From the NCBI GenBank assembly GCA_046726475.1, contig JBKPAO010000032.1, positions 28,800-92,799 on the forward strand: a DNA stretch of 64,000 nt, given 5' to 3'. This document shows positions 8,724-64,000 of this stretch, one piece after another. The notes below the pieces were generated by a model, which was not told where the DNA came from, ran no database searches, and was given only the letters and a program-made list of their open reading frames with translations. Positions within the stretch are counted from its first letter, which is position 1, and each line of letters opens with the position of its first letter. The position numbers and the translations under genes were made by a program. Source of the DNA: Gemmatimonadota bacterium. GTDB lineage: Bacteria > Gemmatimonadota > Gemmatimonadetes > Gemmatimonadales > GWC2-71-9.

Positions 8724-8727
8724 AGGG

Positions 8728-11680: not shown

Positions 11681-11687
11681 TGCCGCG

Positions 11688-21813: not shown

Positions 21814-21817
<4 letters not shown>
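21530..21817 (-). CDS. comFB: ComFB-family protein (late competence development protein ComFB-like)
   Basis: 95 aa. NLVEEHVVAAYDTL...FCGCELCREDVLTFALNRIPPRYV matches the ComFB Cys cluster/LN-PP-Y signature. The GTG start overlaps the miaB TGA. Confidence 0.8.
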
Positions 21818-23124
<1,307 letters not shown>

Positions 23125-37025: not shown

Positions 37026-37158
37026 CGGGGATGAACCGGCGATCTGGCGCAGCACCGACGAGTCGCCTCGCAGCAGCGGGGTGTCGCGCCGGCCCGCAGC
37101 TGCTCGGGCGGAGGCGACGAAGATCAATCATGTTGGCAGGAGGTCCACTACACTGGCG

Positions 37159-39632: not shown

Positions 39633-39654
39633 GGTTTGTCCCCCTCAGCCCGAC

Positions 39655-42979: not shown

Positions 42980-43028
42980 GATTGAACGGCTAATGTAAGA
43001 TGGTACCGCGAGTTCGGAAAGTCCGCGG

Positions 43029-47876: not shown

Positions 47877-47882
47877 CGATCC

Positions 47883-49295
47883 TCAACGGAGATGGAGCGG
47901 AGCACCGGAAGGGGGGGTGTGCTTCGCGCTGGCCTTGAGCGCCGGAAGTATACGCTCCAGCGCCACCCCGCGGGATGCCTTGAGCACGACCACTTCGTCG
48001 CCCCTGAGGTGCGGGACCAGGAGCGGGGCTAAGGTCAGGGGATCCGGAGCTGTGAGGAGACGATGGCGCAGGGCGCCCGCGAACGGCTCGAGAGCGGGCA
48101 CGAAGTCGCCGACCGCCGCCAGGAGCTCCGGGTGGAGATCGACCAGTGCCTCGGCAATCTGTCGATGCAGCATCGCCGAATCATGGCCTAGCTCCCGCAT
48201 TGTGCCCGCGACGAATACCAGCCGCCGATCGCCTCGTAACGCGGCTGCGGTAGCAATGACGGCGCGAAACGACTGGGGATTGGCATTGTAGCAATCGTTC
48301 AGAATGGTGAGCCCGCCCTCCTGAAGCAGCTCGCCGCGCCCACCCGGTATGGTGAACTGCTCCAACGCTGTCGCCGCAACCGCAGGGTCGATCCCGAGCT
48401 CTTCGCCCACGGCCCAGACGCGAATGGCGTTGTCGGCCTGATGCAATCCACGAGCCGCCAGCGTGAAGGCGTGACCGCGCAGAGTAATGATCGGACGAGC
48501 TGCCTCATCCAGCTTCACTTGATCGGGAACCAGCTCCGCATTTTGTAAGCCAGCCGTCCGAACCCGCCGCGCGCGTCGGCGCGCCCCCTCGGCGAGCGCA
48601 AGAGGATCGGTGCCTACGATCGCGAGCGGCACTCCCTCGGTCAGAGCCAACTTCTCTACCACCACGCCAGAGAGAGAGCCGAATCCCTCCAGATGGCCGG
48701 CGACAGCATTGGTGACGATCGCGATGGAGGGCTCGATGATTTGACGGCAGCGAGCGATCTCGCCCGGCAGGTTAGCGCCCGCTTCAACGATGAGCGCTTC
48801 GGTGTCGGGCGGCGCTTCCAGGATGGTCTGAGGGACCCCGACCAGATTATTCAGGTTCGCGCGAGTGGCGTAGGTCCGGTATTTGGTGCCAAGGACGGCC
48901 GCGAGCATCTCCTTGGTACTGGTCTTCCCATTGGTGCCGGTCACCGCGATGACGGGACCCTGAATCGATCGGCGCCGCGCCCGAGCGAGGAGACCGAACC
49001 CACGGAGCGTGTCGTCCACCTCGAAGAGAAGAAGCCCGGGTACAGCCGGGGTTCCCTTCCGTACCAGTGCCGCCGTTGCACCTGCCGCCTGCGCTCCCGC
49101 GAGGTGATCATGACCGTCGAACCGCTCGCCGGTGAGAGCCACGAAGAGAGCGCCCGCTCGAACGGTCCGGCTGTCAGTCGAAATTCCCGAGAAGGTGGTA
49201 CGGCGAACTCCAGGGTCTACTGGAAGGCCGAGCGCCTCCCGGACGGCAGTCTCAGGCCAGGGCGGCGTGTCGGCGATCTCGCGCTCACCGGTCAC
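47883..49295 (-). CDS. murF: UDP-N-acetylmuramoyl-tripeptide--D-alanyl-D-alanine ligase
   Basis: 470 aa with VTGTNGKTSTKEM. The GTG start overlaps the murE TGA. Confidence 0.92.
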   Translation of the reverse strand: MTGEREIADTPPWPETAVREALGLPVDPGVRRTTFSGISTDSRTVRAGALFVALTGERFDGHDHLAGAQAAGATAALVRKGTPAVPGLLLFEVDDTLRGFGLLARARRRSIQGPVIAVTGTNGKTSTKEMLAAVLGTKYRTYATRANLNNLVGVPQTILEAPPDTEALIVEAGANLPGEIARCRQIIEPSIAIVTNAVAGHLEGFGSLSGVVVEKLALTEGVPLAIVGTDPLALAEGARRRARRVRTAGLQNAELVPDQVKLDEAARPIITLRGHAFTLAARGLHQADNAIRVWAVGEELGIDPAVAATALEQFTIPGGRGELLQEGGLTILNDCYNANPQSFRAVIATAAALRGDRRLVFVAGTMRELGHDSAMLHRQIAEALVDLHPELLAAVGDFVPALEPFAGALRHRLLTAPDPLTLAPLLVPHLRGDEVVVLKASRGVALERILPALKASAKHTPPSGAPLHLR

Positions 49296-50752
49296 CGGGC
49301 GCCGCTCACGGCTTTCTCCACAATCTCCCGCTCGTCGAAGTGAATCTTCTCAGTGCCGATCACCTGATATGTCTCATGCCCCTTCCCCGCCAGGAGTATG
49401 GTGTCGCCCGCGCGAGCCTTCTCCAATGCAGCGTGAATCGCCGCGAGCCGGTCGGTGATCCTGATGTGCTGCGTCCCCCTCATACCTCGCTCGATGTCGT
49501 CGATAATGGCGTCCGGGTTCTCAGTCCGCGGATTATCGGATGTCACGATGGCCAGGTCGGAGCCTTGGACTGCGATACGGCCCATCAGGGGCCGCTTCCC
49601 GCGATCTCGGTCGCCACCACAGCCGAAGACCACGATCAAGCGGCCACTCGTGAGAGGTCTCAGACTGGTCAACGCCCGCTCGAGGGCGTCCGGTGTATGG
49701 GCATAATCCCGAAGCACGACACAGGGTGATTCGGAGATCCGTTCCATCCGCCCCGGCACTTGCGGAGACGTTGCCAGTCGTTCAACGACGCGATCGGGTG
49801 GCTCCCCGAGTGCAAGTGCAGCGGCGGCCGCCGCCAGCCCATTGGCTACGTTGAAATCGCCCAATAGAGGCAGAGAGACCTCGGTTGCGCCGAACCGGCC
49901 ATGCATCTGAAAACGTGAACCGCCGGCGCTCAGGATCACACCGGTGGCTCGGACGTCGGCACCGCCCTGGAGACCAAACGTCACTCGGGGAGCATAGGGC
50001 GGGAGCGCCCGCCAGGCATCCTCATCCAGGTTGACCACCTCGACTCCACCTCCAGCGAGCAGTGTGCTCAAGCGCAGTTTGGAGGCAAGATAGGATTCCA
50101 TCGTGCCGTGATAATCGAGGTGATCGCGCGTCAGATTGGTGTAGACCCCGACCGCAAAGGCTAGCCCATCCAGTCGGCCTTGATCCAGGCTGTGGGAGGA
50201 CGTCTCCATTACTACGTGAGTCGTACCGGCCTGAACCAGGGCCGCGAGCGTAGCTTGCAAGTCGACCGGACCCGGTGTCGTTAGTGATCCAGCGGTGGAA
50301 GCAATGGCCCTGCCGCAACCGTCGAAAGCACCCAGCGTTCCAATGCTTCCAGCAGTCTCCCGCTCGTTCAATAGATGGCGAATCAGTCCGGTCGTCGTGG
50401 TCTTACCGTTGGTGCCGGTCACCCCAATCAGTCTCAGGTGACGGCCGGGGTGGCCGTACCATGCCGCCGCGAGGACCAGGGCCGCGCGCCGGCTATCCCG
50501 CACGACGATTTGGGGCACTTCGACCGGCTGGGGAATCTCGACGAGTGCAGCCGACGCACCGCGCTGCAGCGCACCGGTCACGAATTGATGTCCGTCGGTT
50601 TGAGATCCACGCACCGCCACGTAGACCATCTCTGGCTCGATCGCGCGACTATCCACGCCGATCGCTCTGGGATCGGGCCCGTGTGCCGGCGCCGTGATGA
50701 GCAGATCAGCCCGGCGAAGCTCGTCGAGGATCTGGCTCCAGGTCAGCGGCAC
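49292..50752 (-). CDS. murE: UDP-N-acetylmuramoyl-L-alanyl-D-glutamate--2,6-diaminopimelate ligase
   Basis: 486 aa. VTGTNGKTTTTGL and the DNPRTE motif, which is consistent with meso-DAP-type MurE. GTG start. Confidence 0.93.
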   Translation of the reverse strand: MPLTWSQILDELRRADLLITAPAHGPDPRAIGVDSRAIEPEMVYVAVRGSQTDGHQFVTGALQRGASAALVEIPQPVEVPQIVVRDSRRAALVLAAAWYGHPGRHLRLIGVTGTNGKTTTTGLIRHLLNERETAGSIGTLGAFDGCGRAIASTAGSLTTPGPVDLQATLAALVQAGTTHVVMETSSHSLDQGRLDGLAFAVGVYTNLTRDHLDYHGTMESYLASKLRLSTLLAGGGVEVVNLDEDAWRALPPYAPRVTFGLQGGADVRATGVILSAGGSRFQMHGRFGATEVSLPLLGDFNVANGLAAAAAALALGEPPDRVVERLATSPQVPGRMERISESPCVVLRDYAHTPDALERALTSLRPLTSGRLIVVFGCGGDRDRGKRPLMGRIAVQGSDLAIVTSDNPRTENPDAIIDDIERGMRGTQHIRITDRLAAIHAALEKARAGDTILLAGKGHETYQVIGTEKIHFDEREIVEKAVSGAR

Positions 50753-50771
50753 GGGATTCTCGGCGAAATGA

Positions 50772-52727
50772 TCACTCGGTCCACACCACTACCGTTGTTC
50801 CCACTTTCGCCGTTTCGCCGGCTGTGGGCGCCGTCCGGCTCACCCGGCCAAACCCTTTCAGGCTGACACGGAATCCGCTCCGATGCAGCGCCAGTGTTGC
50901 CTCCCGGACAGGTCGCCCATCGACCAAGGGAACCGGCCGTTCCCGGGATAGGGTGTCAGTCACGTGATAGGGCCAGGACAGGACCACACGCGCAGGTGTG
51001 GGCTCAGGATTTCGCGAAAGCGACTCCAGAGTCGCTCTGTGATCGCCACCGGACAATCGCGTGTGCTCGATGGCAATCCGGCGGGAGGCCAGCGCCTGCT
51101 GCAGCATGGTACGCGTGACCGGGGCGGCTGTTAATCCGCCGTAGTACTTGCCGCGGGGGTTGTCGATTTTGACGATCACGACCAGCTGTGGGTCGTCTGC
51201 CGGAAAGAGCGCTGCGAACGAGGCGGTATAAGTGCCGTGGACGTAGCGCCCGTTCTCAAACCGCACGGCGGTGCCGGTCTTTCCCAGTACCGTGTAGTTG
51301 ACCAGCTGGGCCTCCTCGCCGGTTCCACCTTCACTCGCCGCTCCCCTCAAGAACTCCCGGAGCTGCGCGGCTACCGCCGGTGTCACCACCCGCCGGACCG
51401 GCTCCGGCCGGTGCTGGTAGATCGGAGGTCCTGACACACTGCGGATCTCTCGAACCAACGTGGGCGTGAGCAGAACGCCGTTATTCGCGATGGCGGCGTA
51501 GGCCGCCGCCAGCTGGACGGGGGTGACTCCGAACTCGTAGCCCATTGCCACACTGGCGCGGGTATACATCGGTTCCCACTTATCAGGCCGTTCCAAACGG
51601 CCTCTCGACTCGGAAGGAAATTCCGCGCCCGTCGGCGCTCCGAACCCGAAGTCCCGCAGCATCTCGTATTGCTCTTCCGGAGAAAGCCGAGAGGAGAATT
51701 TGGCCATTCCAATATTGCTGGACACTTGGATGGTTCGGGCCAAGGTAAGATTCCCCGTGGTCCGATGCGCGTCGGTAATCACGCGGGTCCGCCCGCTGCT
51801 CGTGATCGGCATGCGCCACAGGCCACCTTCCGCGAACACCGCATCGTCCTCAGTCACTCGGCGGAGAGTGAGGAGGGCGGCGGCCGTAAAAAGCTTAGCG
51901 GTAGACCCCGGCTCGAATGGATCGGTGAAGACCGATGCTCTGGCCGAGCCGGCGCCCTGCCTGGAGGCCAGCGCCAGCAGCTCACCGTTCCTGGAATCGA
52001 GAAATACGACATCGCCACCATCAGCCCGCATCGCGGAGATTGCCTCCTCCAACCCCCGTTCGGCGATCTCCTGGAGCTCGGCGTCGATAGTCAGAACCAC
52101 ATCGTTCCCCGCGACCGGTTCACGAATCAGTCGTGCGGGGGAATCGTACCGCCGGCCCGCGCGATCTTTGAGCAAGACCGCCTCGCCCGGTTGCCCCGTC
52201 AGAATAGAGTCGAGCGACAACTCCAGGCCGGCAGCGCCCCCGGGGCCATCCGGTGAGAGCCCTCCGATTATCGGCCGGGCCAGCGACCGTGAGGGATAGA
52301 AGCGCTGGAAGTCGCGACTGAGATGAATGCCGTCCAACTGGCGTAGCGGTTGGACCTGAGTCGCCGTATAGGGACCGTGATAATAGATCCAGCGCTTACC
52401 CGCTCTGAGATCGCGCCATACCGTCGCGGGAAGTATCCCGAGACACCGAATCAACTGCCGGCCGGCAGCCCGAGAATCTACGAGCTCATTCGGGGCGACG
52501 CCGACATGGTAAAACTCCTGGCTGAGGGCGAGAGGAACACCGTTTCGGTCGTAGAGCCCTCCGCGTTTTGCCGGGAGTACAGCACGCTCGGTTCGCTGGC
52601 GCGCCGCCTGCTCCCTCCAGCGCTCACCCTGAAAGAGTTGCAATTGTGCCGCGCGGGCGAGGATCGCGATAATGGCCAGCGCGAACCCGAACTGGACGAC
52701 GACGATCCGCGTTGCCGGCTTCGCCAT
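50772..52727 (-). CDS. ftsI: Penicillin-binding protein (FtsI/PBP3-type transpeptidase) with a C-terminal PASTA-like domain
   Basis: 651 aa. N-terminal TM, then the STAK (SxxK), SSN and KTGTA motifs. The C-terminal ~70 aa (VPLVDGRPVREATLALHRSGFRVSLKG) looks PASTA-like. Confidence 0.92.
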   Translation of the reverse strand: MAKPATRIVVVQFGFALAIIAILARAAQLQLFQGERWREQAARQRTERAVLPAKRGGLYDRNGVPLALSQEFYHVGVAPNELVDSRAAGRQLIRCLGILPATVWRDLRAGKRWIYYHGPYTATQVQPLRQLDGIHLSRDFQRFYPSRSLARPIIGGLSPDGPGGAAGLELSLDSILTGQPGEAVLLKDRAGRRYDSPARLIREPVAGNDVVLTIDAELQEIAERGLEEAISAMRADGGDVVFLDSRNGELLALASRQGAGSARASVFTDPFEPGSTAKLFTAAALLTLRRVTEDDAVFAEGGLWRMPITSSGRTRVITDAHRTTGNLTLARTIQVSSNIGMAKFSSRLSPEEQYEMLRDFGFGAPTGAEFPSESRGRLERPDKWEPMYTRASVAMGYEFGVTPVQLAAAYAAIANNGVLLTPTLVREIRSVSGPPIYQHRPEPVRRVVTPAVAAQLREFLRGAASEGGTGEEAQLVNYTVLGKTGTAVRFENGRYVHGTYTASFAALFPADDPQLVVIVKIDNPRGKYYGGLTAAPVTRTMLQQALASRRIAIEHTRLSGGDHRATLESLSRNPEPTPARVVLSWPYHVTDTLSRERPVPLVDGRPVREATLALHRSGFRVSLKGFGRVSRTAPTAGETAKVGTTVVVWTE

Positions 52728-53023
52728 CAGGGACGCCCAGGAGCGGAGGGAACCGCGAACAACACGAACTCCGAGTCCGCCGGCTCGTGCAGTCCCAGGT
52801 TACGTTTGGCGATGGGCACCAGCACCTCGCGGCTGGAGGCCACCCGTATCCGGCGCTCGAGATCAGCGCGACGGGCTTCCAGAATGCCGCGCTGCTCTCG
52901 AAGATCGTGAAGCCGGCGCGCTGTGCGCAGCGCTGTAGTCTGCCGGGACACCACCGCCAATGCGCCCCCCAGGAAGATCAAGAGCCATAGAAACACCCAG
53001 TGCCGCCCCTTAAGTCGCTTCAT
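52727..53023 (-). CDS. ftsL: Cell division protein FtsL-like
   Basis: The internal ATG at 53021-53023 gives MKRLKGRHWVFLWLLIFLGGALAVV (one TM) followed by a heptad-rich region. This is the canonical position between rsmH and ftsI. Confidence 0.65.
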   Translation of the reverse strand: MKRLKGRHWVFLWLLIFLGGALAVVSRQTTALRTARRLHDLREQRGILEARRADLERRIRVASSREVLVPIAKRNLGLHEPADSEFVLFAVPSAPGRP

Positions 53024-53930
53024 CGACCACAAAGGTTCGGAGCTTGGCACTTCGCGCGCGGGGGTTGGTCTTGAGCTCCTGCTCGTCCGGCAACACCGGT
53101 CGTCGAGGCTCGACTCTTCCCAGCGACCGGCCACGACAGGTGCAGACCGGGAGGCCCGGTGGGCAGACGCACCTGCTGGCCCATTCGCGGAAAGCGTGCT
53201 TCACCAACCGGTCCTCTCCCGAATGATAGGTAATGATCGACAGTCGGCCGCCCGGCTTGAGTGCGTCCCGGAGTGCGGGGAGAGCACTCGCCAACTGCTC
53301 CAACTCGTGATTGACCGCAATCCGCACGGCCTGAAAGAGGCGAGCGAACTCGGGAGGACCTGTCCTCGGACCGAGAACGGCCCGGATGGCATTCACCAGG
53401 TCATCGCTGACGGCAAATGGTTGGCGTGCCCGTCGGCGCAGAATCTCCGCGGCAAGGCGCCGGGCCCGCCGCTCGTCTCCGTAATCGCGGAAAATGCGCT
53501 CGAGCGCTGCTCCGTCCGCATGGTTGAGGAGGTCGGCTGCGCTTTCTCCTGCGTCTTCCATCCTCATGCCGAGCGGCGCACCGGGACGGAAGGTAAAACC
53601 CCGGCCCGCCTCGTCCAGCTGGCGCGAAGAGACCCCCAGGTCGAGCAGGATGAAATCCGGCTCGAATCGGGTGACGGCCGTAAGCGCCTCCGGCGAGGCG
53701 TACGCCGTTTGCAGGTAACGGATCCCGGCTTCTCCGAGCCTCTGCCGACTGAGCGCAATCGCCTCGGGATCGCGGTCGATGCCAAGGACCTCCGCGCCAT
53801 TACTGAGCAGGGCAGCCGCGTGACCACCGTCTCCCAGCGTAGCATCGACTGCCCGGCGAGCTCCTCGCGCGGCCAGACGCACCTGCTCCAGGAGCACCGG
53901 CACGTGATATATCGAAGTCTGTTGTGGCAT
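53010..53930 (-). CDS. rsmH: 16S rRNA (cytosine1402-N4)-methyltransferase
   Basis: MPQQTSIYHVPVLLEQV...DATLGDGGHAA...DLGVSSRQLD. I chose the start at ATG 53928-53930 because the longer ORF would run through an intrinsic terminator. Confidence 0.92.
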   Translation of the reverse strand: MPQQTSIYHVPVLLEQVRLAARGARRAVDATLGDGGHAAALLSNGAEVLGIDRDPEAIALSRQRLGEAGIRYLQTAYASPEALTAVTRFEPDFILLDLGVSSRQLDEAGRGFTFRPGAPLGMRMEDAGESAADLLNHADGAALERIFRDYGDERRARRLAAEILRRRARQPFAVSDDLVNAIRAVLGPRTGPPEFARLFQAVRIAVNHELEQLASALPALRDALKPGGRLSIITYHSGEDRLVKHAFREWASRCVCPPGLPVCTCRGRSLGRVEPRRPVLPDEQELKTNPRARSAKLRTFVVDEAT

Positions 53931-54130: not shown

Positions 54131-56017
54131 TTATGCCTTCTTCTTCTTACTCGCCTTGCAGTACGCCTTCAGCATCGAGGCAATACGCGGGTTGTACTTC
54201 TTGATGATATCCAGGTTTTTGTCCACCGCTTGTGGATTGACCGAGCGGCCTGCGGTCAGCGCAGAGTCCGCGCCGGCCAGCAGCGCCTGCTCCTGTTTGG
54301 CCCCATCACAGGACTTCTGCTTCTCGGTTATTGGGTCCTGCTGAGGTACCTGGAACAGCAGAGCTAGGCCAAGCAAGTAATTGGCGGCAGGATAGACCTT
54401 GCCCGACGGATTGGCCGTTTGCACCGCCATCCGGAGGATCTGCTCGGCCCCCTGGAGATCCTGGGGCTGCTGGAGCAGCGGGGTGGCCGCACTATAAAGC
54501 AGTACCGCCGCCTTCTCCTTGGCGTCGGCATCGCCATGCTTGATCACAAACTCCAGGAAGGGCACAGCCTCCTTGGATCGGGGCGTGAAGCCGCTCGGGC
54601 TCGTTGCAGCTCCAGCCTTGGATGTGTCGGGTCGAGTGGCCGTGGACGAATCACGTTTGACCGCCCCTTTGCTGGTGTCCGGATGGGCGGAGCCGCGCGC
54701 GGAATCGGGTCGCTGGGCGGTGCTGTCCGGCTCGGGAGGGAGCACCAGGGCCTTGGCCGCCGCCAACGCCACCTCGACCCCCGTCTCGGTCGTGTCCTTG
54801 GCGATGATCCGGTTGGCGACCGCTATCAGGCTGTCGGTCTGGCCGGTCATCGCGTACCCGGTGCTGAGATAGCGAAGGAGCGTCGGGTTGTTGGGATATT
54901 TCCGATTTCCAATCTGCGCCCACTTCACCAGCCGGGGTGCGTCTTTCCCCTCCTGAGCCGCCACTGAGATCTTGCTGAAGAACAGCGTATCCGCCTTGGT
55001 GGAGTCGGTCGCATACATCGTCTCGAGAGCATCGACCGCACACTTGAAGTCGCCCAGGAACAGGCATGCATTACTCTTGAGATCGTACAGATCCGCGTTG
55101 TTGGGATCGAGCTTTAGGCCCTCGTCTGCTACCTTGCGCGCCGTCTCCGGGTGTCCCGAGGCCAGGAAGTACTTGAACAACCTCTCTCTGAGCGCCTGGT
55201 TGGTCGGGGCGACGGAGAGCATGTGCGAGAACGCATCCAGCGTTTTTGCTGTGTCGTTAGCGGCCTGGTACTGCTCGGCCAGGGCGGTCCACGCCGGGAG
55301 GCTCAAGGGATCGCTCTTTACCGCGGCCTGGAGGTGCTGAACCACCTCGGCAGGCTTCTTCTGCGTCCGGGCGATCTGCGCCAGACAGAACTCCGCCAGC
55401 CCATAATTCGGCAGGGTCTTGGTTGCCTTCGTGGCGGCTTCCTGCGCTTTGTCGGGCTTGGCGGCCTGCTGATCGACGCATGCCTTGGCATCAGGCAGGG
55501 CTTTCACCGTGGGCTGAAGCGCCTGGGCAATCTTCTTACCGAAATCCTCGGGAGTCTGTCCCTGTGCCTGAGTCAAAGAGACCACGTTCCCGGCGTCGTC
55601 GTTCACCCCGGTGAGGCGCGCGGTCACTGTGGGAGGCTTCCCGGCAGCACTCGCCAGGGTGCCCGTCACGATGACTCGGGCCTGGATATTCTTGGCCAGA
55701 GTGGTCGCGAGCGGAGGGCTCAGGATTGCGTCTATCGGGTAACCGTACTGCTTCAGAGCGTCGTTCATCTGACTCTGCTCGATCACCGTGAAATTGCGGC
55801 CAACGATACCCTTCATCTCCTGCCGCATCGCAGTGCCGATCCTGACGGCGTTCGCCGAATCACCCGGAGCGAAGGCAAAGGGGTTGGCCACCATCAGCCT
55901 GGGGGCATTGGTGGCGGGTTGAGTGGTGCGCGCACCGCGGGGAATTCCCTGCGCCGAGAGGCGCGTGGAGACGATTCCTACGGAGAACGCGATGAGCATC
56001 GAACGCGACAGATACAT
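54131..56017 (-). CDS. Secreted TPR-repeat protein (unknown function)
   Basis: ATG 56015-56017 gives the signal peptide MYLSRSMLIAFSVGIVSTRLSAQG. Multiple TPR-like helical repeats, an S/T/P/D-rich linker and a Lys-rich tail (KASKKKKA). Confidence 0.65.
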   Translation of the reverse strand: MYLSRSMLIAFSVGIVSTRLSAQGIPRGARTTQPATNAPRLMVANPFAFAPGDSANAVRIGTAMRQEMKGIVGRNFTVIEQSQMNDALKQYGYPIDAILSPPLATTLAKNIQARVIVTGTLASAAGKPPTVTARLTGVNDDAGNVVSLTQAQGQTPEDFGKKIAQALQPTVKALPDAKACVDQQAAKPDKAQEAATKATKTLPNYGLAEFCLAQIARTQKKPAEVVQHLQAAVKSDPLSLPAWTALAEQYQAANDTAKTLDAFSHMLSVAPTNQALRERLFKYFLASGHPETARKVADEGLKLDPNNADLYDLKSNACLFLGDFKCAVDALETMYATDSTKADTLFFSKISVAAQEGKDAPRLVKWAQIGNRKYPNNPTLLRYLSTGYAMTGQTDSLIAVANRIIAKDTTETGVEVALAAAKALVLPPEPDSTAQRPDSARGSAHPDTSKGAVKRDSSTATRPDTSKAGAATSPSGFTPRSKEAVPFLEFVIKHGDADAKEKAAVLLYSAATPLLQQPQDLQGAEQILRMAVQTANPSGKVYPAANYLLGLALLFQVPQQDPITEKQKSCDGAKQEQALLAGADSALTAGRSVNPQAVDKNLDIIKKYNPRIASMLKAYCKASKKKKA

Positions 56018-56085
56018 GCCAGAAATCTCCACAACGGGTCGGCCCAGATCGGGCCTGCAGCGCCCCGCCCAGCGCGGGTGCGAAA

Positions 56086-56453: not shown

Positions 56454-57296
56454 CTACGGTTCCCTGGTCGGGTCAAGTTCAGACGGGGCTATAGCTTCCG
56501 GAGGAAGCTCCCATCCCTCATCCAGCGCCGCGCGCCGGGCACGGTCCGCCCGCTTCCGCCGGCGCAGAAGCGCCCAGACTGCCAGACTGAGTATCCCCCA
56601 TCCGCCCCCCGCTACGAGCCAAGTGGCAAGACTGTACCTCCGGCGGAGGCTGTGGCGCCATTCATTCTCGAATTGTGAGACGGTCAAGCCGGTGGTGGCG
56701 TGCACGCTGGCTTCGAAATCGTCGCCCGCACGCAGCCGCTGCAGGAGCGGAGTGAGGGAATGAGACGGGTTCAGCCGGGCCAGCTCGGTTACCGCCGACA
56801 CTGCCAGGGCATAGGATACATCCGCGGTCGAGGCGGATCCTCGCAGCGCCCCGTCCAGCGTTCGAAGGTCGGGGACGGCACCCCGCACCACCGCAAGGTT
56901 GAGCTCGAGAGTACCGAGACGGTCCCACTCGCCGGCGGCCCACGCCGCGTAACCTTCGTCAAACCACAACGGCACTCGAACGGTGACCGCCTGGTGGAGC
57001 GCGAGATGGGCGAGCTCGTGTCGGAGTGTGCGGTACAGGTCGTCGACATCGGCGCGCAGCAGGATAGTGCGCGAACCCGGCACTGCCACCGCTGCCCCCC
57101 ACGCCGGGGCGCGACCGCCGGAGAGAGAGTCCATCCGGCGTGCATCGGGAACCACAATCAGCCGGAGGGGACCAGGGGAGTGACGGCCGAGGCCCGGCCA
57201 TTCAGTGGCTTGCCCGGCACGCCGAGCAAGCTCGGTAGCCAAACCAAGCTGGCCAGGCCAGGCCACGGCTGTCACCTGCCCTACCCGCACTGCCAT
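56454..57296 (-). CDS. HExxH metallopeptidase-like protein (MA-clan, peptidase_MA_2-like) with a C-terminal TM anchor
   Basis: HELAH in LRHELAHLALHQ, followed by WFDEGYAAWAAGEW (putative third ligand Glu). C-terminal LATWLVAGGGWGILSLAVWALLRRRKR. Confidence 0.6.
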   Translation of the reverse strand: MAVRVGQVTAVAWPGQLGLATELARRAGQATEWPGLGRHSPGPLRLIVVPDARRMDSLSGGRAPAWGAAVAVPGSRTILLRADVDDLYRTLRHELAHLALHQAVTVRVPLWFDEGYAAWAAGEWDRLGTLELNLAVVRGAVPDLRTLDGALRGSASTADVSYALAVSAVTELARLNPSHSLTPLLQRLRAGDDFEASVHATTGLTVSQFENEWRHSLRRRYSLATWLVAGGGWGILSLAVWALLRRRKRADRARRAALDEGWELPPEAIAPSELDPTREP

Positions 57297-57349: not shown

Positions 57350-58219
57350 TCAGGAAAGCGGACTGCGCGGGACTTCACCTCCGGCTGCCGCAACCTCCAG
57401 CATCTCTTGGCAGCGTTTGGCCCAGGGATTGAACTTGTTGGCCTTGTACCCGTCGGTCCATGCTCGGACCGCCTCTTCCCGCTCACCTCCGAGCCATAAT
57501 GCCCGGCCCAGCTCGAAGTAGGCCTCGATCAGATTGGGTCCCAGCTTCAGGGTCTTGCGCAGGAAGGTTTGCGCGTCCTCGTACATCTCACGCTCCAGGT
57601 AGACCAACCCAAGATAGTAGTGCGCGTAGAGAGTAGCCTTGCGGTCATTGTCGAGTCGTATCGCTTTCGAGAGGTGCTCGATCGCCTCGCCGAAAATTCC
57701 CTTTTTGAGGCAGATATAACCCACATTGATTCGCGCCAACGCGTTGGCCGGCTCCTTCATCAGCACTTTGGAAAAGTTTCCCAGGGCGTCGTCGTAGTCT
57801 TCATTGAGCATCTGGGCCCACCCCAGCAACGAGGTGGCTTCGACCGCTCCGGGTGACAGGCTCAAGGCGCGCTCCAGCGCCTGAATGGCGCCGGTGTAAT
57901 CGCCCAGAGAAATCAGGCTCCATCCCTTTTCTATATATGTAGAGGCTCCGAGATGGTCGGCGTGGACTGCCGGGCGCGCCCCATTGAACTGGGGAGCCGC
58001 GCTGACCTCGGCGGCGCTGACGGTCTGTTTGTAGCGTTCGACCAGCCCTTTGATCTCCTCCTTGATGTGCCCCAAGTCGGAAAGCGCCCCGTCCACCCGC
58101 TTGAAGAGCGAGATGATGTCCCGCTTCAGCGACTCGCGTCCGGCACCCGCAGGCGCGTCCACCCGGCCTGCGATCGCCTGGAGCTCGGTGCGGAGCGCAG
58201 CCAGCCAAGCCTCGGTCAT
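57350..58219 (-). CDS. Coiled-coil plus TPR-repeat protein (che-operon associated)
   Basis: 289 aa. N-terminal heptad-like region (LKRDIISLFKRVDGALSDLGHIKEEIKGLVERYKQ), then about 5 TPRs. The ATG shares 1 nt with the cheW TGA. Confidence 0.65.
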   Translation of the reverse strand: MTEAWLAALRTELQAIAGRVDAPAGAGRESLKRDIISLFKRVDGALSDLGHIKEEIKGLVERYKQTVSAAEVSAAPQFNGARPAVHADHLGASTYIEKGWSLISLGDYTGAIQALERALSLSPGAVEATSLLGWAQMLNEDYDDALGNFSKVLMKEPANALARINVGYICLKKGIFGEAIEHLSKAIRLDNDRKATLYAHYYLGLVYLEREMYEDAQTFLRKTLKLGPNLIEAYFELGRALWLGGEREEAVRAWTDGYKANKFNPWAKRCQEMLEVAAAGGEVPRSPLS

Positions 58220-58683
58220 CAGGCGGCTCCCAGCTCACTCAGCGCCAGCCGCTCACTCGAAGAGAGCAGCTTCCTGGCATTAAGGATGATAACAGTCCGT
58301 CCGGGGCGAGTGACGATGCCTGCGATGTAGACCGCAGCCAAGCCACTGACGATCGGGGATGGCGCGGTGATCACCGTGCTGTCGACCCGCAGCACTTCCA
58401 GGACTTCGTCCACCAACACCGCTATGCGCTGGCCGTCGAGCTCCAGGACCATCAGGCGAGTCTCCTCTCGGATCAGCGCCTCGAGCTCGAATCGTTTGCG
58501 AAGGTCGATGACCGGGACGGCGCTCGCGCCGTAGGGCATCACCCCCTCCAGGAAACCTGGTGCCTTTGGCAGCGGCGAGGGGGCGGAGTAGCGGAGGATC
58601 CGCTCGACCTGAAGAATGTCGAAGGCGAATTCCTGTCGGCCCACCCGGAACGTCACCAGCTGAACGTCGTCCCCTGTGGTCAT
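58219..58683 (-). CDS. cheW: Chemotaxis coupling protein CheW
   Basis: 154 aa. LVTFRVGRQEFAFDILQVERIL...PGFLEGVMPYGASAVPVIDLRKRF is the canonical CheW sequence. Confidence 0.88.
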   Translation of the reverse strand: MTTGDDVQLVTFRVGRQEFAFDILQVERILRYSAPSPLPKAPGFLEGVMPYGASAVPVIDLRKRFELEALIREETRLMVLELDGQRIAVLVDEVLEVLRVDSTVITAPSPIVSGLAAVYIAGIVTRPGRTVIILNARKLLSSSERLALSELGAA

Positions 58684-59111
58684 TGCGATGCGGCCTCCAG
58701 CAAACGTGAGCTCAGAGCGGATAAATCCAGCAGGGGGACGAGTTCCCCATCATGTCGTGCAACGCCAGTGGCCCAGGGCAGTGTTTCCCCCGCGGGCACG
58801 GGCAGCGCCGGCTCGTGCAGCAGGATCTCAGCTTCTTCCACCTCCAGGCATACTCGCTTACCCTCCACCAGGATGACCACCCCGGTGGTTCCTACCTCCG
58901 TAGGATGCGCCGTGCCTTGAAGCAAGGAGGCGAGATGCACCAGCGGTACCATCCGCCCCTGCATCGCCACCAAGCCGCGAACAGCGGGCTCGATGACTGG
59001 GACCGACCGCACCTCACCGAGTTGTGTCACCGCAATGACATGGGAGAGCTCCAGCCCCACGAAACGACTCCCGGCGCGGACCAGTAGAAACCCGGATTCG
59101 CGCCGGCTCAT
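58680..59111 (-). CDS. cheW: CheW-like coupling protein (second copy, divergent)
   Basis: 143 aa. [21 protein letters not shown]...[21 protein letters not shown]. CheW fold pattern, but more divergent than the neighbouring copy. Confidence 0.8.
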
Positions 59112-60184
59112 CGCGTTCTCAACTGACTAAGCTCCGCGGCGATCCGCGGAGCCATTTGGGAAACAGGCAGAACCTCCCTCACGCCACCGGATTGCAACGC
59201 CGCCGCCGGCATTCCATAGACGGTGGCGCTTTCGCGATCCTGAGCCAGCCCAACCCCGCCTGCGTCATGGATGCGCCTGAGACCTTCCGCACCATCACGA
59301 CCGATACCAGTGAGAACGACGCCGATGGCTCGGGCGCCAAACCGCGCCGCGACGCTGCTGAAGAGCGGATCCGCTGCGGGGCGCACGCCCCACACTGTTG
59401 GGCCTCGGTCCAACATGAGACACAGGGCGCCCGGGGCAGGATTAACCCGCATGTGGTAATCGCCGGGTGCCACGTACGCCGTATCCGCGAGGAGCGGCAT
59501 GCCATCCTCCGCTTCCACGACCTTGCAGCGGCTCCGGGAAGCGAGTCGCTCCGCCAGGCTGTGGGTGAACTTGGGCGGCATGTGCTGAACGACTACCACT
59601 GCGGCCTCCTGCCCGATTGGGAGACGCGGAATGATTTCGGCCAGCGCCCGAGGGCCTCCGGTCGAAGCGGCAAAGGCCACGCAGAGCCTTGCCTCTCCTG
59701 GAGCGGTCCGCGCACTCGAGGCTTGCATTGTCCTGCCGGACTCTTCGGCGCGAGCGACGCGCTTGATGTCAGCCGAGCGGGCAGTCCGCAACACGGTCAT
59801 CAAACGCTCGGCAAACCGGGCCGTCGCGGCAGCGCCGCGTTCATCTTCCTTGGCCACCAGGTCGACGGCGCCCAGCTCCAGCGCACGAATCGCCGCCGTC
59901 GCTCCGGGACCGGCGTGGGCGCTGACCACTACAATCGGGAGTGGTGACTCGGCCATGATGTACCCAATGGCTCCGAGTCCATCCAGCTCAGGCATCTCCA
60001 GATCCATGAGCACCACATCGGGAGCCAGCGAGCGAACCTTGCGGAGCGCATCCATGCCATCACGTGCGGTCGCGATGACCCGGAACTCACCCGACCCCTC
60101 CACCACGTCGGTCAGCAAGCGACGAAAGAAGGCGCTGTCGTCGACCACCAGGACCCGGCCCGGATCAGAGGTGCTGGGTGCCAT
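59108..60184 (-). CDS. cheB: Chemotaxis response regulator protein-glutamate methylesterase CheB
   Basis: 358 aa. REC domain ([11 protein letters not shown]...[14 protein letters not shown]) plus a methylesterase domain with ASTGGP, QHMP and GIGRDG. Confidence 0.93.
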
Positions 60185-60653
60185 GCGCGACGGTCCTCAC
60201 TTCCACTTGACCATCCCCGACCCGCAGGCGGACCGTTCGACCGAAGTCGCCGCCCACCGCTTCCCCCACGAGAGGAACGCCGTGCGCGTTCAAGGCCTGC
60301 CGCGCAGCGGCCAGGTTCCGCTCTCCCATCTGGAGAGTGCCGGGCGGGGCCAGCGCCGCAAACATGCTCGCGCCGCCGGCCAGTCGACCGGTGATTCGGT
60401 CAGCGCGGGCGCCATCAGCCTGCATCAGCTCGAGCAGGCGAGGCACCGCCGATTGGGGGAACTTTGCGGGGTTGCTGTCGGCGCGAGCCAGAGCCGGGGA
60501 AGGCAGCAGTGTGTGAGCCAGTCCTCCCACCCGGGCCTCGGCGTCATAGAGAACGATGGCCACACAACTCCCCAGGCCGACCGTGACCAGCACATCGTCG
60601 GCTACCCCAGTCCGCAGATCGGCGACGCGAACGAGCAGTTCCCGGCCGGTCAT
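60165..60653 (-). CDS. cheD: Chemoreceptor glutamine deamidase CheD
   Basis: 162 aa with [12 protein letters not shown] (catalytic Cys) and GGLAHTLLP. Overlaps cheB by 20 nt. Confidence 0.88.
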
Positions 60654-61471
60654 GCGGCGCGCCGATACACCCGCTCGCGCGGATCCAGCAGCGTCAGTCG
60701 CTCGCGCGCCGGGCCGAAAAGAGTCTCGACCTTTCCCAGCACCAGAAAGCCGCCGGGCGCGAGCGCGTCAGCGAAGGCATTGAACACCCGCTCTTGGGCT
60801 GCACGCCCGAAATAGATGACGACGTTCCGGCAAAGGATCAGGTGATAGTTCCGGCGCGGCGGCGGGTCGTTGACCAGGTCGGAGGCCCGGAGCACAACCC
60901 TACGGCGCACCTGCTCCGCGACCCGGCGGAGATCACCCTCGCTTTCGAAATACCGCTGGACCAGCCCGGCCGGGACTTCGACAAGTGCCTCGGCGGAATA
61001 CCGAGCGGCCTGCGCGCGGGCGAGGCACTCGCGGTCGATATCCGTGGCATCGATGGTGACCAGGCCGAGCCGGTCTGTCCTGCCTTGGGTCTCCAGGCGC
61101 TCGGCGATGAGCATGGCGAGGGTGTACGGCTCCTCCCCCGACGAGCAGCCCGCACTCCATGCCCGCACCTCGTGCTGCCCGTCGGCACAGATCTCCCGCA
61201 GCACGGTCTCTCGCAGAAGGTTCCAGGTTTCGGCGTTTCGGTAGAAGCGGGTAACGTTGATGGTGATAGCATCCTTCAGCCGCTCGTACTCCTCCGGGCT
61301 TCGATCCAACACCGCCTGGTAGTCCGAGTACGTGTGGGCGCCACAGGCGCGCATACGAACGGCGATTCGCCGCCGGAGGCACTTGTCCTTGTAGTCCTGC
61401 ATCGGGAGTCCCACCTCCCGCGAGATCTTCGCGGCGAGGGCGGCGAACGCTGCCTCATCGGGGGGCGTCAT
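60650..61471 (-). CDS. cheR: Chemotaxis protein methyltransferase CheR
   Basis: 273 aa. TRFYRNAETW and the SAM-binding VRAWSAGCSSGEEPYTLAML. Confidence 0.92.
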   Translation of the reverse strand: MTPPDEAAFAALAAKISREVGLPMQDYKDKCLRRRIAVRMRACGAHTYSDYQAVLDRSPEEYERLKDAITINVTRFYRNAETWNLLRETVLREICADGQHEVRAWSAGCSSGEEPYTLAMLIAERLETQGRTDRLGLVTIDATDIDRECLARAQAARYSAEALVEVPAGLVQRYFESEGDLRRVAEQVRRRVVLRASDLVNDPPPRRNYHLILCRNVVIYFGRAAQERVFNAFADALAPGGFLVLGKVETLFGPARERLTLLDPRERVYRRAA

Positions 61472-63084
61472 TGGGACAAATCCAGCATCTCGAGGTTCGC
61501 CCTGGCGAGTTGATGCCCCGGATTAAGCGACGTTGCCTGGGCCCAGCTTTCCCTTGCGCGGATGTGATCGCGCCGCTTGTAGGCGATGTTGCCCAGCTTG
61601 AAGTACAGGTCGTCGCCCAACTCCGGATTGAGCTTTGCCGCCCGCTCGTACGCCTCGGCAGCCTCCTCGTATCGGCCGTTGCGATAGAGGAGGTCTCCCA
61701 GATTCTTCGAGACCTGAGGCAGCGCGGCGTCTTCGGCGAGCGCCGAGCGCAGGAGCGTTTCCGCTCCTTGGACGTCGCCACTGACCTCCAACAGCACCGC
61801 GAGATTGTTCTGGAGCACCGGATGGTGAGGAAAGGCGGTGACTCCCTCGCGAGCGATCCGAAGCGCATCCTCCGCATCGTCGATGCCGGACGCGGCCAGG
61901 GTGGCGCCCCAGTACCAGAGTGCCGGCAGCGGTTTTCCGTCCAGTAGCTCGCAAGCGCGCGCCAACCGTGCCTGGGCCACCTTGTTGTCGCCACGTTTGA
62001 GAGCCACGATGCTCCAGCCCAGCATGATTCGTGGATCGTCCTTGGCTCGGCCGGCCGCGTCGCCGAACGCCGCCTCAGCCTCATCCAGCCGACCCAATTG
62101 TTCGAGTGCAAACCCCAGGTTGTGCAGCGCCGCAGGCCGGGGCACGCCCGATTCAGCGGCCTGGCGCAGGGCGACTGCCGCTTCCTCCCAGCGGGCCTGA
62201 CGTATGGCAATGAGACCCAGGAATAACGGTGCGCCGCTGTCGGCCGGCCGTAGTTCGATCACCCGGCGGAACTCGCGCAGGGCCTCCTCCAGCATTCCCG
62301 CTTTGTAAAACGCGATCCCTAGGTTGCGGTGTTCATCGACCCGGCTCTCGTTGACCTTAGGGGCAATCGCGGTGGAGGTGCCCACCCGGTGCGCGAAGCC
62401 GGCGGTAATCAGTCCAAAGAGCGCTTTGCCGACCTCGAACTCGACCAATCCCGACTCATCGATCAGTTGGCGCACGTCGCGCGTGCCGTCGATGAGGGAA
62501 AGCAGCCGTTGTTGCTCGGATGAGAGCGTAGGAGCCGATTGCTGGATGTGCTGCTGATCGACCGAGAAGATCAAATCGAAGGAGGGGATCTTTTTCTCGA
62601 TCAGACTCCATTCGTCCACCCGCCGAGCGCCCTCCAGCAACAGCGCCTCGGGGCTGATGCGAACGAGAAAGTCCTCTCGCTCGGGGCGAACACCCGCCTC
62701 GAAGTTGAACGTGCCTGATGTCCAGGTGAACAGGTAGTACACCGCTTCTTCTATCTGGAGGCGTATGTACTCCTCCAGCTCAGTCCGGGACAATAGGCCC
62801 AGGCCCACCAAAATTTCACCCAACTTGTGTTGTCGGTCGTCCACCTGGGCTGCGATGGCTTGCTGCAGCTGCTCGGCGCTGATACGGCCTTTGCGGAGCA
62901 GGATGTCACCCAGGCGGTCGCGGCGGTTCACGATCGAGGCGTACACGATCTGTCCTTCATCCAGGTAGATCGTCCCGAAGTTGTGCTGGTCCGCGAGCGC
63001 GAGGCAGCCGGTGCGCCGCCCCAGAAACAGCAGCTGAATGACGTCCGGTAGACTGGCCTCTTTGAGGCTGCCCTTGATCGCCAT
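61468..63084 (-). CDS. PATAN (DUF4388) domain protein with tandem MshEN/T2SSE_N-like repeats and C-terminal TPRs
   Basis: ATG 63082-63084 shares 1 nt with the upstream TGA. MAIKGSLKEASLPDVIQLLFLGRRTGCLAL...GTIYLDEGQIVYA is the PATAN pattern. It is followed by RLGDILLRKGRISAEQLQQAIAAQ / KLGEILVGLGLLSRTELEEYIRLQ and then at least 6 TPRs. Confidence 0.75.
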   Translation of the reverse strand: MAIKGSLKEASLPDVIQLLFLGRRTGCLALADQHNFGTIYLDEGQIVYASIVNRRDRLGDILLRKGRISAEQLQQAIAAQVDDRQHKLGEILVGLGLLSRTELEEYIRLQIEEAVYYLFTWTSGTFNFEAGVRPEREDFLVRISPEALLLEGARRVDEWSLIEKKIPSFDLIFSVDQQHIQQSAPTLSSEQQRLLSLIDGTRDVRQLIDESGLVEFEVGKALFGLITAGFAHRVGTSTAIAPKVNESRVDEHRNLGIAFYKAGMLEEALREFRRVIELRPADSGAPLFLGLIAIRQARWEEAAVALRQAAESGVPRPAALHNLGFALEQLGRLDEAEAAFGDAAGRAKDDPRIMLGWSIVALKRGDNKVAQARLARACELLDGKPLPALWYWGATLAASGIDDAEDALRIAREGVTAFPHHPVLQNNLAVLLEVSGDVQGAETLLRSALAEDAALPQVSKNLGDLLYRNGRYEEAAEAYERAAKLNPELGDDLYFKLGNIAYKRRDHIRARESWAQATSLNPGHQLARANLEMLDLSQ

Positions 63085-63965
63085 CAGCGCCACTCCTCGA
63101 CGATGCGATCACCGACATCGGGCCAGTCCCAGACCAGCTTTTCCCGGCTGCGGGCACCGACCACGGGTGCCACGACTCCACTGGCTCTGATAGCCACAGA
63201 TCTGCGCGGCGGCTTGGCCGGAGCACCTTCCAATACCTCTCGAGCCAGCGCGGCGCTGGGCAAGATGTCCTTGGCCTCAGCGGCGTTCAGAACCCGCTGC
63301 AGCAAGCCTTGCACGGCACGGACCGAGTCCGCCGGCCGCGAGCTGAGATACGAGGCGAGCTCGATATCGGCCTTACCGACCTTGGCCTGCAGCAGCCGTT
63401 CGACGACGTGCTGACGGATTTCACGTTCTGGAGGCGGCAGATCGACAACCAGGCCCCCCTCCAGTCGGGTACGAAGCCGAGCTTCTACCGCAGTGAGCTC
63501 AGCCAGCGGTACCGCAGAAGTGAAGACCATCTGCCGGCCGGACTCCATAAGAAAATTGAAGAGGACGAAGAGCTCGTCCTGAGTCCGGTCCTTCTCAGCG
63601 ACGAGGTGGACATCGTCCAGCAGAAAGGCCCCAGCCCCCCGATAGCGTGCGCGCCAGGGGCCCACGGCATCCCGGTCGATTGCCTCGATCAGTTCGCCGG
63701 TAAACTCGTGCGAGCTGAGGCAGGCCACCGGCCCGCGCGCTCGCTCTGCCAGGGCATTTCCCAGCGCGTGCAGCAGATGGGTCTTCCCTACCCCGCTGGC
63801 ACCAACGATGACGAGGGGGTTATAGCGACTGGATGGCTCGGCCACGATCGCCCGCGCGGCCTTCAGCGCGATGCGGTTGCCGTCTCCCTCGAACAGGTCG
63901 TCCAGCCGCCAGATGGGCAACGGTGCCGGCGGAGGATGAGCCCCCTGACGGGCCCGTAAGGTCAC
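63084..63965 (-). CDS. DnaA-family AAA+ ATPase paralog lacking the DNA-binding domain IV (N-terminus possibly beyond the window)
   Basis: YNPLVIVGASGVGKTHLLHALGN (Walker A), AFLLDDVH (Walker B), MVFTS (sensor I) and RLRTRLEGGLVVDLPPPEREIR (DnaA box VII/VIII-like). There is no KRxxxxRQxAMYL-type HTH. GTG start at 63965, but the frame stays open to 64000. Confidence 0.75.
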   Translation of the reverse strand: MTLRARQGAHPPPAPLPIWRLDDLFEGDGNRIALKAARAIVAEPSSRYNPLVIVGASGVGKTHLLHALGNALAERARGPVACLSSHEFTGELIEAIDRDAVGPWRARYRGAGAFLLDDVHLVAEKDRTQDELFVLFNFLMESGRQMVFTSAVPLAELTAVEARLRTRLEGGLVVDLPPPEREIRQHVVERLLQAKVGKADIELASYLSSRPADSVRAVQGLLQRVLNAAEAKDILPSAALAREVLEGAPAKPPRRSVAIRASGVVAPVVGARSREKLVWDWPDVGDRIVEEWR

Positions 63966-64000
63966 TGCCTCCGCACCGGCAATGTCGTCCGGATCGCGGA

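Follow-up and report, generated by a model that had tools for sequence, protein, structure and literature searches.

Does a chemotaxis-type gene cluster that carries a DnaA-like ATPase serve ordinary chemotaxis, and do its unusual genes belong to it at all? The question is raised by one end of a 64,000-nucleotide stretch of a Gemmatimonadota genome (contig JBKPAO010000032.1, positions 28,800 to 92,799; this whole stretch is called the window below), where eight open reading frames (ORFs) lie in one direction on the minus strand between positions 57350 and 64000. The first-pass annotation, made from the sequence alone, recognized in them five chemotaxis genes and three non-standard ones, encoding a DnaA-like AAA+ protein, a PATAN protein with TPRs and another TPR protein, and proposed a chemosensory module with an alternative function whose scaffold or output includes an AAA+ switch. 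Our analysis shows that these ORFs form the distal 40% of an operon characteristic of Gemmatimonadota, in which 19 translationally coupled genes occupy ~17 kb, mglA and mglB being in the middle. With moderate confidence, we propose that the operon encodes a chemosensory pathway similar to Frz, with an MglA/MglB polarity switch under its control, and that the DnaA-like ATPase is built into this pathway as a scaffold or switch.

The eight-gene chain

The features of the chain are as follows.

63084..64000, minus strand: DnaA-like tandem ATPase, 3' part of the gene (residues ~344-648 of 648; Pfam Bac_DnaA, 3.5e-39)
61468..63084, minus strand: PATAN (DUF4388) protein with C-terminal TPR, 538 aa, PATAN538 (Pfam DUF4388, 7e-38, two stretches; TPR families)
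62761..62916, minus strand: MshEN-like tandem motif in the PATAN domain, residues 57-108 of PATAN538 (NCBIfam NF053729)
60650..61471, minus strand: CheR methyltransferase, 273 aa, without TPR fusion (Pfam CheR, 4e-50, and CheR_N)
60165..60653, minus strand: CheD receptor deamidase, 162 aa (Pfam CheD, 2e-24; NCBIfam CheD models)
59108..60184, minus strand: CheB, receiver and methylesterase, 358 aa (Pfam CheB_methylest, 8e-63; Response_reg, 6e-21)
58680..59111, minus strand: divergent CheW, 143 aa (Pfam CheW, 3e-15)
58219..58683, minus strand: CheW, 154 aa (Pfam CheW, 7e-32)
57350..58219, minus strand: TPR protein, 289 aa, TPR289, the final gene of the overlapping chain (Pfam TPR families)

Neighbouring ORFs overlap by 1, 4, 4, 20, 4, 4 and 1 nt, the longest overlap being the one of cheB and cheD. 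The coordinates and overlaps given in the first-pass annotation were reproduced when recomputed, for the overlaps also on a near-identical contig (see below), and all its protein assignments agree with Pfam. Since every ORF of the chain has a strong Pfam domain match and the gene order recurs at ~90 independent loci, the chain is not a chance pattern. The start of the first ORF had been placed at 63965, which proved incorrect, the frame being free of stop codons up to base 64000. For PATAN538 two alternative starts, ATG 63084 (538 aa, 1-nt overlap) and GTG 63093 (541 aa), are both used by gene callers.

The complete operon

To extend the array beyond the window, first CheR and then the complete DnaA-like protein were searched for by exact sequence, which led to a near-identical Gemmatimonadales contig from the metagenome-assembled genome (MAG) GCA_046724575.1, with 4 differences from the window in 10,917 bases. 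The genes of the array, all on one strand, encode an RluD-like protein, CheW (145 aa), CheY (120 aa), CheA (624 aa), CheC (206 aa), a TPR protein (910 aa, TPR910), a PATAN and TPR protein (346 aa, PATAN346), a TPR and Roadblock protein (274 aa), a Roadblock protein (115 aa), an MglB-like protein (153 aa), an MglA GTPase (200 aa), the DnaA-like protein (648 aa), the PATAN-TPR protein (538 aa), CheR, CheD, CheB, two CheW and TPR289. All 19 genes are joined by junctions of -20 to +11 nt; in particular, the seven non-che genes between cheC and cheR overlap by 1-8 nt or are separated by 1-5 nt. Downstream of the array, after a 53-nt gap, there are genes of a Peptidase_MA_2 protein and a 628-aa TPR protein, followed by the dcw (division and cell wall) cluster starting with rsmH-ftsL-ftsI. 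In the window's part of the array, neither a promoter-like site nor a convincing terminator was found, the counts being no higher than in shuffled sequence, and the promoter and terminator scan leaves the operon ends undefined.

The window itself indeed contains no CheA, CheY or methyl-accepting chemotaxis protein (MCP), as had been stated. The kinase and the response regulator had been expected just beyond base 64000, and they are present in the same array, though not at its nearest part: CheW-CheY-CheA-CheC are located 6.6-10 kb past that base, the CheA/CheY part being separated from the window edge by seven genes, which include the GTPase module. The receptor, also expected there, was not found: no MCP signalling-hairpin motif occurs in six-frame translations of the window or ~100 related loci (regular-expression search).

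MglA, MglB and Roadblock proteins

The mid-operon position is occupied by mglA and mglB, which had not been foreseen and which strengthen the proposal of a polarity-type alternative function. The 200-aa GTPase matches MglA from Myxococcus xanthus over 193 residues (7.7e-73) and contains the motifs GPGRSGKTT (P-loop), TDRT, TVPGQ and NKQD. It has both features that distinguish MglA, Thr in the PM3 motif (TxxGQ) and the intrinsic arginine, and, judging by its sequence, is a genuine MglA. The 153-aa protein encoded directly upstream of mglA is similar to M. xanthus MglB (4e-8; NCBIfam MglB 1.6e-7, below the cutoff), and is identified from this similarity as MglB, a putative Roadblock-type GTPase-activating protein (GAP). 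Two further Roadblock/LC7 domains (Pfam) precede mglB, one in the TPR/Roadblock protein of 274 aa, another in the Roadblock protein of 115 aa. The latter was considered as an MglC orthologue, but this was rejected on sequence grounds, as neither 7CT3 nor 7CY1 (structures of MglC) appeared among its matches at E<=10.

PATAN and TPR proteins

The PATAN domain (Pfam DUF4388) of PATAN538 has its counterpart in PATAN346 (4e-31). In both proteins this domain contains an insertion with a tandem 24-residue motif of the MshEN type, RLGxx(L/V/I)2xxG(L/V/I)2xxxxLxxxLxxQ, whose positions are kept in orthologues. In PATAN538 the insert reads RLGDILLRKGRISAEQLQQAIAAQ ... KLGEILVGLGLLSRTELEEYIRLQ (residues 57-108) and forms a predicted cyclic di-GMP (c-di-GMP) site. 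The hint at T2SSE_N in the first-pass annotation corresponds to this MshE-related motif, which is matched by NCBIfam NF053729 with 45.1 bits in PATAN538 and 44.1 bits in PATAN346 (cutoff 38). Both PATAN proteins are thereby predicted c-di-GMP sensors. Neither of them has a match to the receiver domain (Pfam Response_reg), and TPR repeats are found instead.

TPR289 consists of a ~90-residue N-terminal region without domain matches and TPR repeats. It belongs to the cluster's better conserved proteins, with 65-87% identity where the DnaA-like protein has 44-85%.

Chemotaxis proteins

CheA, encoded outside the window (positions 1491-3365 of the near-identical contig), is comprised of Hpt, P2, H-kinase_dim, HATPase_c and CheW domains, with a single Hpt and no fused receiver. 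CheY is a single-domain protein with the active-site residues DD, D, S and K, and it is 85-100% identical across loci. The catalytic Ser, His and Asp of CheB are read in the sequence, and the active-site residues of the Che proteins are intact. Of the three CheW proteins in the array, the divergent one (143 aa) has no NCBIfam match. CheB scores 366 bits with its NCBIfam model, above the cutoff; the best matches of the others (CheA_Halo, CheY_Halo, CheC_Thermotogales, CheD_Thermotoga) are all below equivalog cutoffs. The array lacks what characterizes Pil-Chp systems, that is, a multi-Hpt ChpA with a receiver, PilG/PilH/PilJ and pil neighbours, and contains no pil genes.

The tandem DnaA-like ATPase

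The gene of the DnaA-like protein is cut by the window edge and is complete in the near-identical contig. In the full 648-aa protein the Bac_DnaA domain is matched twice (Pfam, 2e-91), and the NCBIfam DnaA and Hda models also match. The portion encoded in the window comprises the end of a helical linker, the second AAA+ module, with Walker A GASGVGKTH, Walker B LLDDVH and the arginines of RLRTRLEGGL, and a disordered tail that closes with the conserved motif EKxVWxWP...DRIVEEW. In the AlphaFold model (mean predicted local distance difference test score, pLDDT, 84) two AAA+ modules are bridged by a helical domain (residues 258-364), and the disordered tail (605-637) is followed by a short terminal helix. 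Each half of the model has the fold of DnaA domain III; the N-module is superposed on domain III of Bacillus subtilis DnaA with a template-modeling (TM) score of 0.94 and a root-mean-square deviation (rmsd) of 1.5 A (Foldseek), the sequence match to the same domain being 3.6e-56. All matches of the model in the Foldseek search were to DnaA domain III or to generic AAA+ proteins with two rings (p97), and none was informative on the linker domain.

Neither DnaA domain IV (Bac_DnaA_C, PF08299) nor domain I (PF11638) is matched in the 648-aa protein at E<=0.1 (Pfam); the true DnaAs in the family-profile search carry both. The clamp-binding motif of the Hda type, QL[SP]LPL, is not read at the N-terminus (MTATLNPLYRF...). 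The Hda model scores 143.6 against the cutoff of 194.8 (NCBIfam), and Hda is a single domain III of ~230 aa, while here there are 648 aa and two modules.

The alignment yields a distinct family of ~650-aa proteins with identity down to 33%; with the family profile, its members reach 526 bits or more, and the true DnaAs no more than 337 bits. Walker A, Walker B, sensor I, box VII arginines and sensor II of the N-module are invariant across the family, and the linker and the C-terminus contain the family motifs DEFxxFLSEV...RWxxEGxRTxRLE...FRDPD and EKxVWxWP...DRLIEE, respectively. The N-module has a median identity of 44% to 90 true DnaAs and is about equally similar to remote members of its own family; divergence is greater in the C-module (34%).

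The second ATPase module is absent or degenerate in some lineages. A natural single-module variant of 395 aa consists of the N-module and the linker (locus L017, 2674-3861), and in other variants (alignment rows P0183 and P0199), which are of full length, Walker A of the second module is degenerate. Because such variants exist, the N-module together with the linker appears to be the essential part of the protein.

In public annotation (JGI, NCBI) the members of the tandem family are routinely named 'chromosomal replication initiator protein' (DnaA) or 'DnaA/Hda family protein'. Naming these ATPases, which lack domain IV, as DnaA is a systematic mis-annotation that could inflate dnaA counts of Gemmatimonadota MAGs.

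Conservation of the operon

The comparison by tblastn with 20 reference proteins included 11 species-representative genome loci and 80 metagenome loci. In the genome scan of 80 loci one of the two patterns used, GLGKTHL, also fits the true DnaA, and 69 loci with ordinary dnaA (L018-L086) were discarded, leaving L007-L017. The loci were collected via the DnaA-like gene, and hence its own presence in 73/73 is not an independent test. The ~90 loci span 44-92% identity in the DnaA-like protein. The complete chromosome CP070666.1 is one example of a genome with the cluster.

The neighbours are almost always present, and their order and orientation are kept, wherever the contig reaches. The number of loci with the gene found, relative to the number of loci whose contig covers its expected position, is 24/26 for CheY, 27/28 for CheA, 29/32 for CheC, 32/33 for TPR910, 47/50 for PATAN346, 54/57 for TPR-Roadblock, 64/67 for Roadblock (115 aa), 67/70 for MglB and 76/79 for MglA on one side of the DnaA-like gene, and 58/61 for PATAN538, 48/53 for CheR, 41/47 for CheD, 33/41 for CheB and 31/37 for TPR289 on the other. 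The co-occurrence of the accessory genes with the che cluster in relatives, which the first-pass annotation had proposed to check, is thus observed for both the PATAN-TPR and the C-terminal TPR protein, and the sporadic distribution that would have spoken for an ordinary chemotaxis operon is not. As position and orientation are kept wherever the contig reaches, the three accessory genes are not chance neighbours.

The three recurrent misses for most genes are loci of other lineages. In two of them, L087 (deposited as 'Candidatus Cloacimonetes bacterium 4572_55') and L090 (another MAG), the order is CheW-CheY-CheA-(AAA_22 ATPase-CheW-like)-CheC-TPR (~820 aa)-PATAN (~245 aa)-tandem DnaA, without Mgl genes, CheR, CheB and CheD, so that the DnaA-like gene stays with the che, TPR and PATAN genes in a distant lineage too. 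The third, L088 (a deep Gemmatimonadetes MAG; 3765-12094), retains the pair of a giant TPR protein and the tandem DnaA-like protein, without che or mgl genes. In view of these three loci, the constant core consists of the TPR protein and the tandem ATPase; PATAN is usually present as well, and cheW-cheY-cheA-cheC usually precede.

Several lineage-specific features were observed as well. At L088 the pair is located downstream of two bactofilin genes, with a few genes in between, and the three proteins downstream of the pair (200, 729 and 563 aa) have no Pfam match. In Gemmatimonadaceae the full array is supplemented, after cheB, by an extra AAA_22 ATPase and a 218-aa CheW at the position of the divergent CheW. 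The AAA_22/AAA_16 P-loop ATPase (~265-272 aa) and the extended CheW-domain protein (218-310 aa) are paired genes, found at L173 15934-17384 (Gemmatimonadaceae), L087 3743-5493 and L090 4339-6011, and not in the window's lineage; this pair may be an ancestral array-associated ATPase lost in the latter. Finally, the contig CAXMUQ010000073.1 (L012), deposited as an 'uncultured Acidimicrobiia' MAG, carries a full cluster of the Gemmatimonadales type with 42-84% protein identity (35% for the divergent CheW), and is probably mis-binned.

Possible functions of the pathway

The proposed Frz-like pathway could work as follows. CheA would be controlled by receptors whose genes are located elsewhere and by the three CheW proteins, with CheR, CheB, CheD and CheC supplying adaptation and signal termination. 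Phosphorylated CheY (CheY~P) would act on the MglB/Roadblock set and thereby change the nucleotide state or the cell position of MglA, as Frz does in Myxococcus. The large TPR protein and both PATAN proteins may be effectors or adaptors of MglA, possibly bringing in c-di-GMP input via the MshEN-type insertions, while the tandem DnaA-like protein may be an ATP-dependent oligomerising scaffold or switch in the complex; the role of an AAA+ protein as scaffold or output switch is plausible given its conserved ATPase motifs and strict linkage. Since the DnaA-like protein has a disordered tail with a conserved terminal motif and an invariable TPR neighbour, docking of this motif to the TPR proteins as a TPR-bound peptide is suggested. 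The output would be a polarised structure or process, such as the pilus or flagellar pole, or the growth or division pole. In this scheme, the gene content, domain identities, intact catalytic motifs and conserved linkage are observations; we infer every protein-protein step and the output.

Several observations weigh against this interpretation. No MCP gene is found in the window and ~100 loci, although CheR, CheB and CheD require an MCP. No output genes (pil, glt, fla) occur in or near the locus. By their sequences, the Che proteins seem closest to the CheC/CheD-containing, F1-like type of Thermotoga, Bacillus and haloarchaea, and this class usually controls flagella or archaella. The gene order kept within one phylum can partly reflect vertical inheritance and not function. 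Moreover, the similarity of the N-module to DnaA may reflect a DnaA-type activity unrelated to scaffolding, and the second module, as noted above, is missing or degenerate in some lineages.

Another explanation is an ordinary flagellar chemotaxis operon, in which CheY~P acts on the flagellar switch, and the Mgl, PATAN and DnaA-like proteins are inherited neighbours or position the flagellum or the receptor array. CheA, CheY, CheC and CheD best match F1-type models of Halobacteria and Thermotogales, CheA is canonical, with the P2 domain and no fused receiver, and the high conservation of CheY is as expected for a partner of the conserved motor; Gemmatimonas aurantiaca is described as flagellated. 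Still, we consider this explanation unlikely, for the seven coupled non-che genes between cheC and cheR are almost always kept in the Gemmatimonadota loci that reach them, the distant lineage keeps TPR-PATAN-tandem DnaA right after cheC, and all NCBIfam che matches except CheB fall below equivalog cutoffs. Flagellar genes are also lacking in the examined parts of the window: the absence of flagellar and pilus genes, originally claimed for the entire 64 kb, holds for the stretches ~15.0-23.8, 28.5-49.6 and 50.7-64 kb, where the dcw cell-division cluster and housekeeping genes are found.

The DnaA-like protein could also be a regulator of replication or the cell cycle, co-assembling with DnaA or mimicking it in the manner of Hda, so that the pathway gates initiation or couples polarity to division. 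The median 44% identity of the N-module to the true DnaA domain III comes from comparisons across many phyla, the Walker motifs, arginine finger and sensor II are kept, as well as the F-V and KxR-type residues that DnaA uses for oligomerisation and contact with single-stranded DNA, the fold matches DnaA domain III (TM 0.94, rmsd 1.5 A), and at all Gemmatimonadota loci reaching far enough the operon is found directly upstream of the dcw division genes. However, domains I and IV and the N-terminal Hda-type clamp-binding motif are lacking, the dcw adjacency is absent in other lineages, and the constant partners are the TPR and PATAN proteins, not replication genes; altogether, this makes such a role rather improbable. 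A specific version, in which the tandem protein still co-oligomerises in the ATP-dependent manner of DnaA and targets the initiator or origin DNA, and the Che/MglA pathway with its c-di-GMP input gates replication or links the identity of the poles to the cell cycle, appears to us more doubtful still. If the protein did act on DnaA, this would be a Che pathway of a new kind, with the replication machinery as its output; the type genus of Gemmatimonadota is named for its bud-like division. As for a remnant of a mobile element, that is, a helper ATPase similar to IstB or DnaC that ended up in the che operon, it has a Pfam IstB_IS21 match (1.8e-16) in its favour and is virtually ruled out by the far higher Bac_DnaA score (2e-91), the lack of an adjacent transposase, the uniform base composition, the synteny, with the position fixed in ~90 loci, and the family-specific linker and tail motifs.

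Returning to the Frz-like pathway, the joining of che and mgl modules in one phylum-wide operon would be independent genomic evidence of an old, modular connection from Che to MglA. In Myxococcus, where the respective genes are scattered, the link of Frz with MglA/MglB has been worked out genetically. The operon could also provide candidates for missing parts, such as the two PATAN/MshEN proteins, bringing c-di-GMP into polarity control, as well as the TPR and Roadblock adaptors and the double DnaA-like ATPase family. Gemmatimonas species are culturable, and the predictions are open to genetics. Full-text literature searches, also those on DnaA-like proteins with MglA, PATAN or Che and on MglA in Gemmatimonas, found no description of the operon or of the tandem DnaA-like family, and a preprint on the F1 class is silent on Gemmatimonadota; the chemosensory-MglA operon with a double DnaA-like ATPase is uncharacterised in the searched literature.

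Neighbouring genes

Two genes lie between the operon and the dcw cluster.

56454..57296, minus strand: Peptidase_MA_2 protein, 280 aa, 53 nt downstream of the chain (Pfam, 1.6e-14)
54131..56032, minus strand: TPR protein, 628-633 aa, between the cluster and rsmH (Pfam TPR)

The Peptidase_MA_2 gene (found in 28/33 loci, counted as above) is a conserved neighbour and may or may not be a part of the unit. Its match to 'flagellinolysin' (NCBIfam, 27 bits against the cutoff of 205) was judged meaningless. The gene of the 628-633-aa TPR protein is present downstream in 26 loci, and rsmH-ftsL-ftsI come next if the contig extends that far.

The stretch 35226-53930 (minus strand) contains a complete dcw cluster, comprising rsmH, ftsL, ftsI, murE, murF, mraY, murD, ftsW, murG, murC, ftsQ, ftsA and ftsZ, and the che/Mgl operon is immediately upstream of it in every Gemmatimonadota locus reaching that far. 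After ftsZ there are genes of a Peptidase_M23 protein and a 633-aa protein without a Pfam match (35226-37127), and then ftsY and recG.

Elsewhere in the window, a gene of a ComFB-domain protein (21530-21817, minus strand) is preceded by a gene of a radical-SAM MiaB-like protein (21814-23124, minus strand) and lies directly upstream of comEC (19270-21516; Competence and Lactamase_B domains). ComFB has recently been described as a receptor family for cyclic dinucleotides (c-di-NMP) (PMC12448109), and the ComFB-comEC pair possibly reflects control of DNA uptake by a nucleotide second messenger.

Comparison with known systems

Among the closest known systems is the Frz system of M. xanthus, which acts on the polarity module MglA/MglB(/MglC/RomR). 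As in the latter, CheA, CheW, a CheY-type regulator, CheR and CheB are accompanied by a true MglA, a Roadblock-type GAP MglB and further Roadblock paralogues, as well as by large TPR proteins, plausible MglA effectors like SgmX in Myxococcus. One difference is that che and mgl genes form one operon here, while mglBA of Myxococcus is not located near the genes that encode its interaction partners (PMC4316618). Further, CheA has no receiver, unlike the CheA-CheY fusion FrzE, and the 273-aa CheR has no TPR, unlike the CheR-TPR fusion FrzF; the locus contains no FrzCD-like receptor, dual-receiver FrzZ or RomR, while CheC and CheD are present. The two PATAN/MshEN proteins and the tandem DnaA-like ATPase have no counterpart in Frz. 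The cluster may function in a Frz-like way without being an orthologous set of Frz genes.

Actinobacterial conservons (CvnA-D) are similar in being operons of a histidine kinase, Roadblock proteins and an MglA-family GTPase. Here, however, the kinase is CheA and not a membrane sensor kinase, CvnC (DUF742) is absent, and the GTPase is very close in sequence to M. xanthus MglA, which belongs to MglA Group 1, whereas the conservon GTPases form Group 2 (Wuichet and Sogaard-Andersen, PMC4316618).

With the F1-type systems of Thermotoga, Bacillus and haloarchaea the cluster shares the CheA(P1-P5)-CheW-CheY-CheC-CheD-CheR-CheB set and the best similarity to models, but the scores are below equivalog cutoffs, no MCP, CheV or flagellar gene is present in the cluster, and seven non-che genes are inserted in its middle.

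The PATAN response regulators PatA and PixG/PilG are part of cyanobacterial che-like, type IV pilus phototaxis systems. The common feature is a PATAN protein encoded in a che-like cluster; however, the cyanobacterial proteins have a C-terminal receiver, while those described here have TPR and the MshEN-matching insertion, with no pilus genes nearby. Binding of PATAN response regulators to the type IV pilus motor is reported in a preprint (bioRxiv 10.1101/2021.06.11.447907), and PMC4316618, citing Makarova 2006, mentions that PATAN genes sometimes adjoin MglA/MglB genes. The MshEN receptor, the N-terminus of MshE/T2SSE, has the same tandem 24-residue motif RLGxxLLxxGxIxxxxLxxxLxxQ, which occurs twice per PATAN protein, but here it is inserted in the PATAN domain and is not N-terminal on a secretion or pilus ATPase, and the second motif of the 538-aa protein opens with K instead of R.

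As for DnaA and Hda, the DnaA-like protein has two complete domain III modules with intact Walker A and B, box VII arginines and sensor II, and a TM score of 0.94. It differs from them by the tandem duplication, the family-specific helical linker of ~110 residues and the conserved C-terminal WxWP tail, and by the lack of domain I, domain IV (binding DnaA boxes) and the clamp-binding motif. Moreover, unlike dnaA, the tandem ATPase gene is located in a signalling operon and not at dnaA-dnaN.

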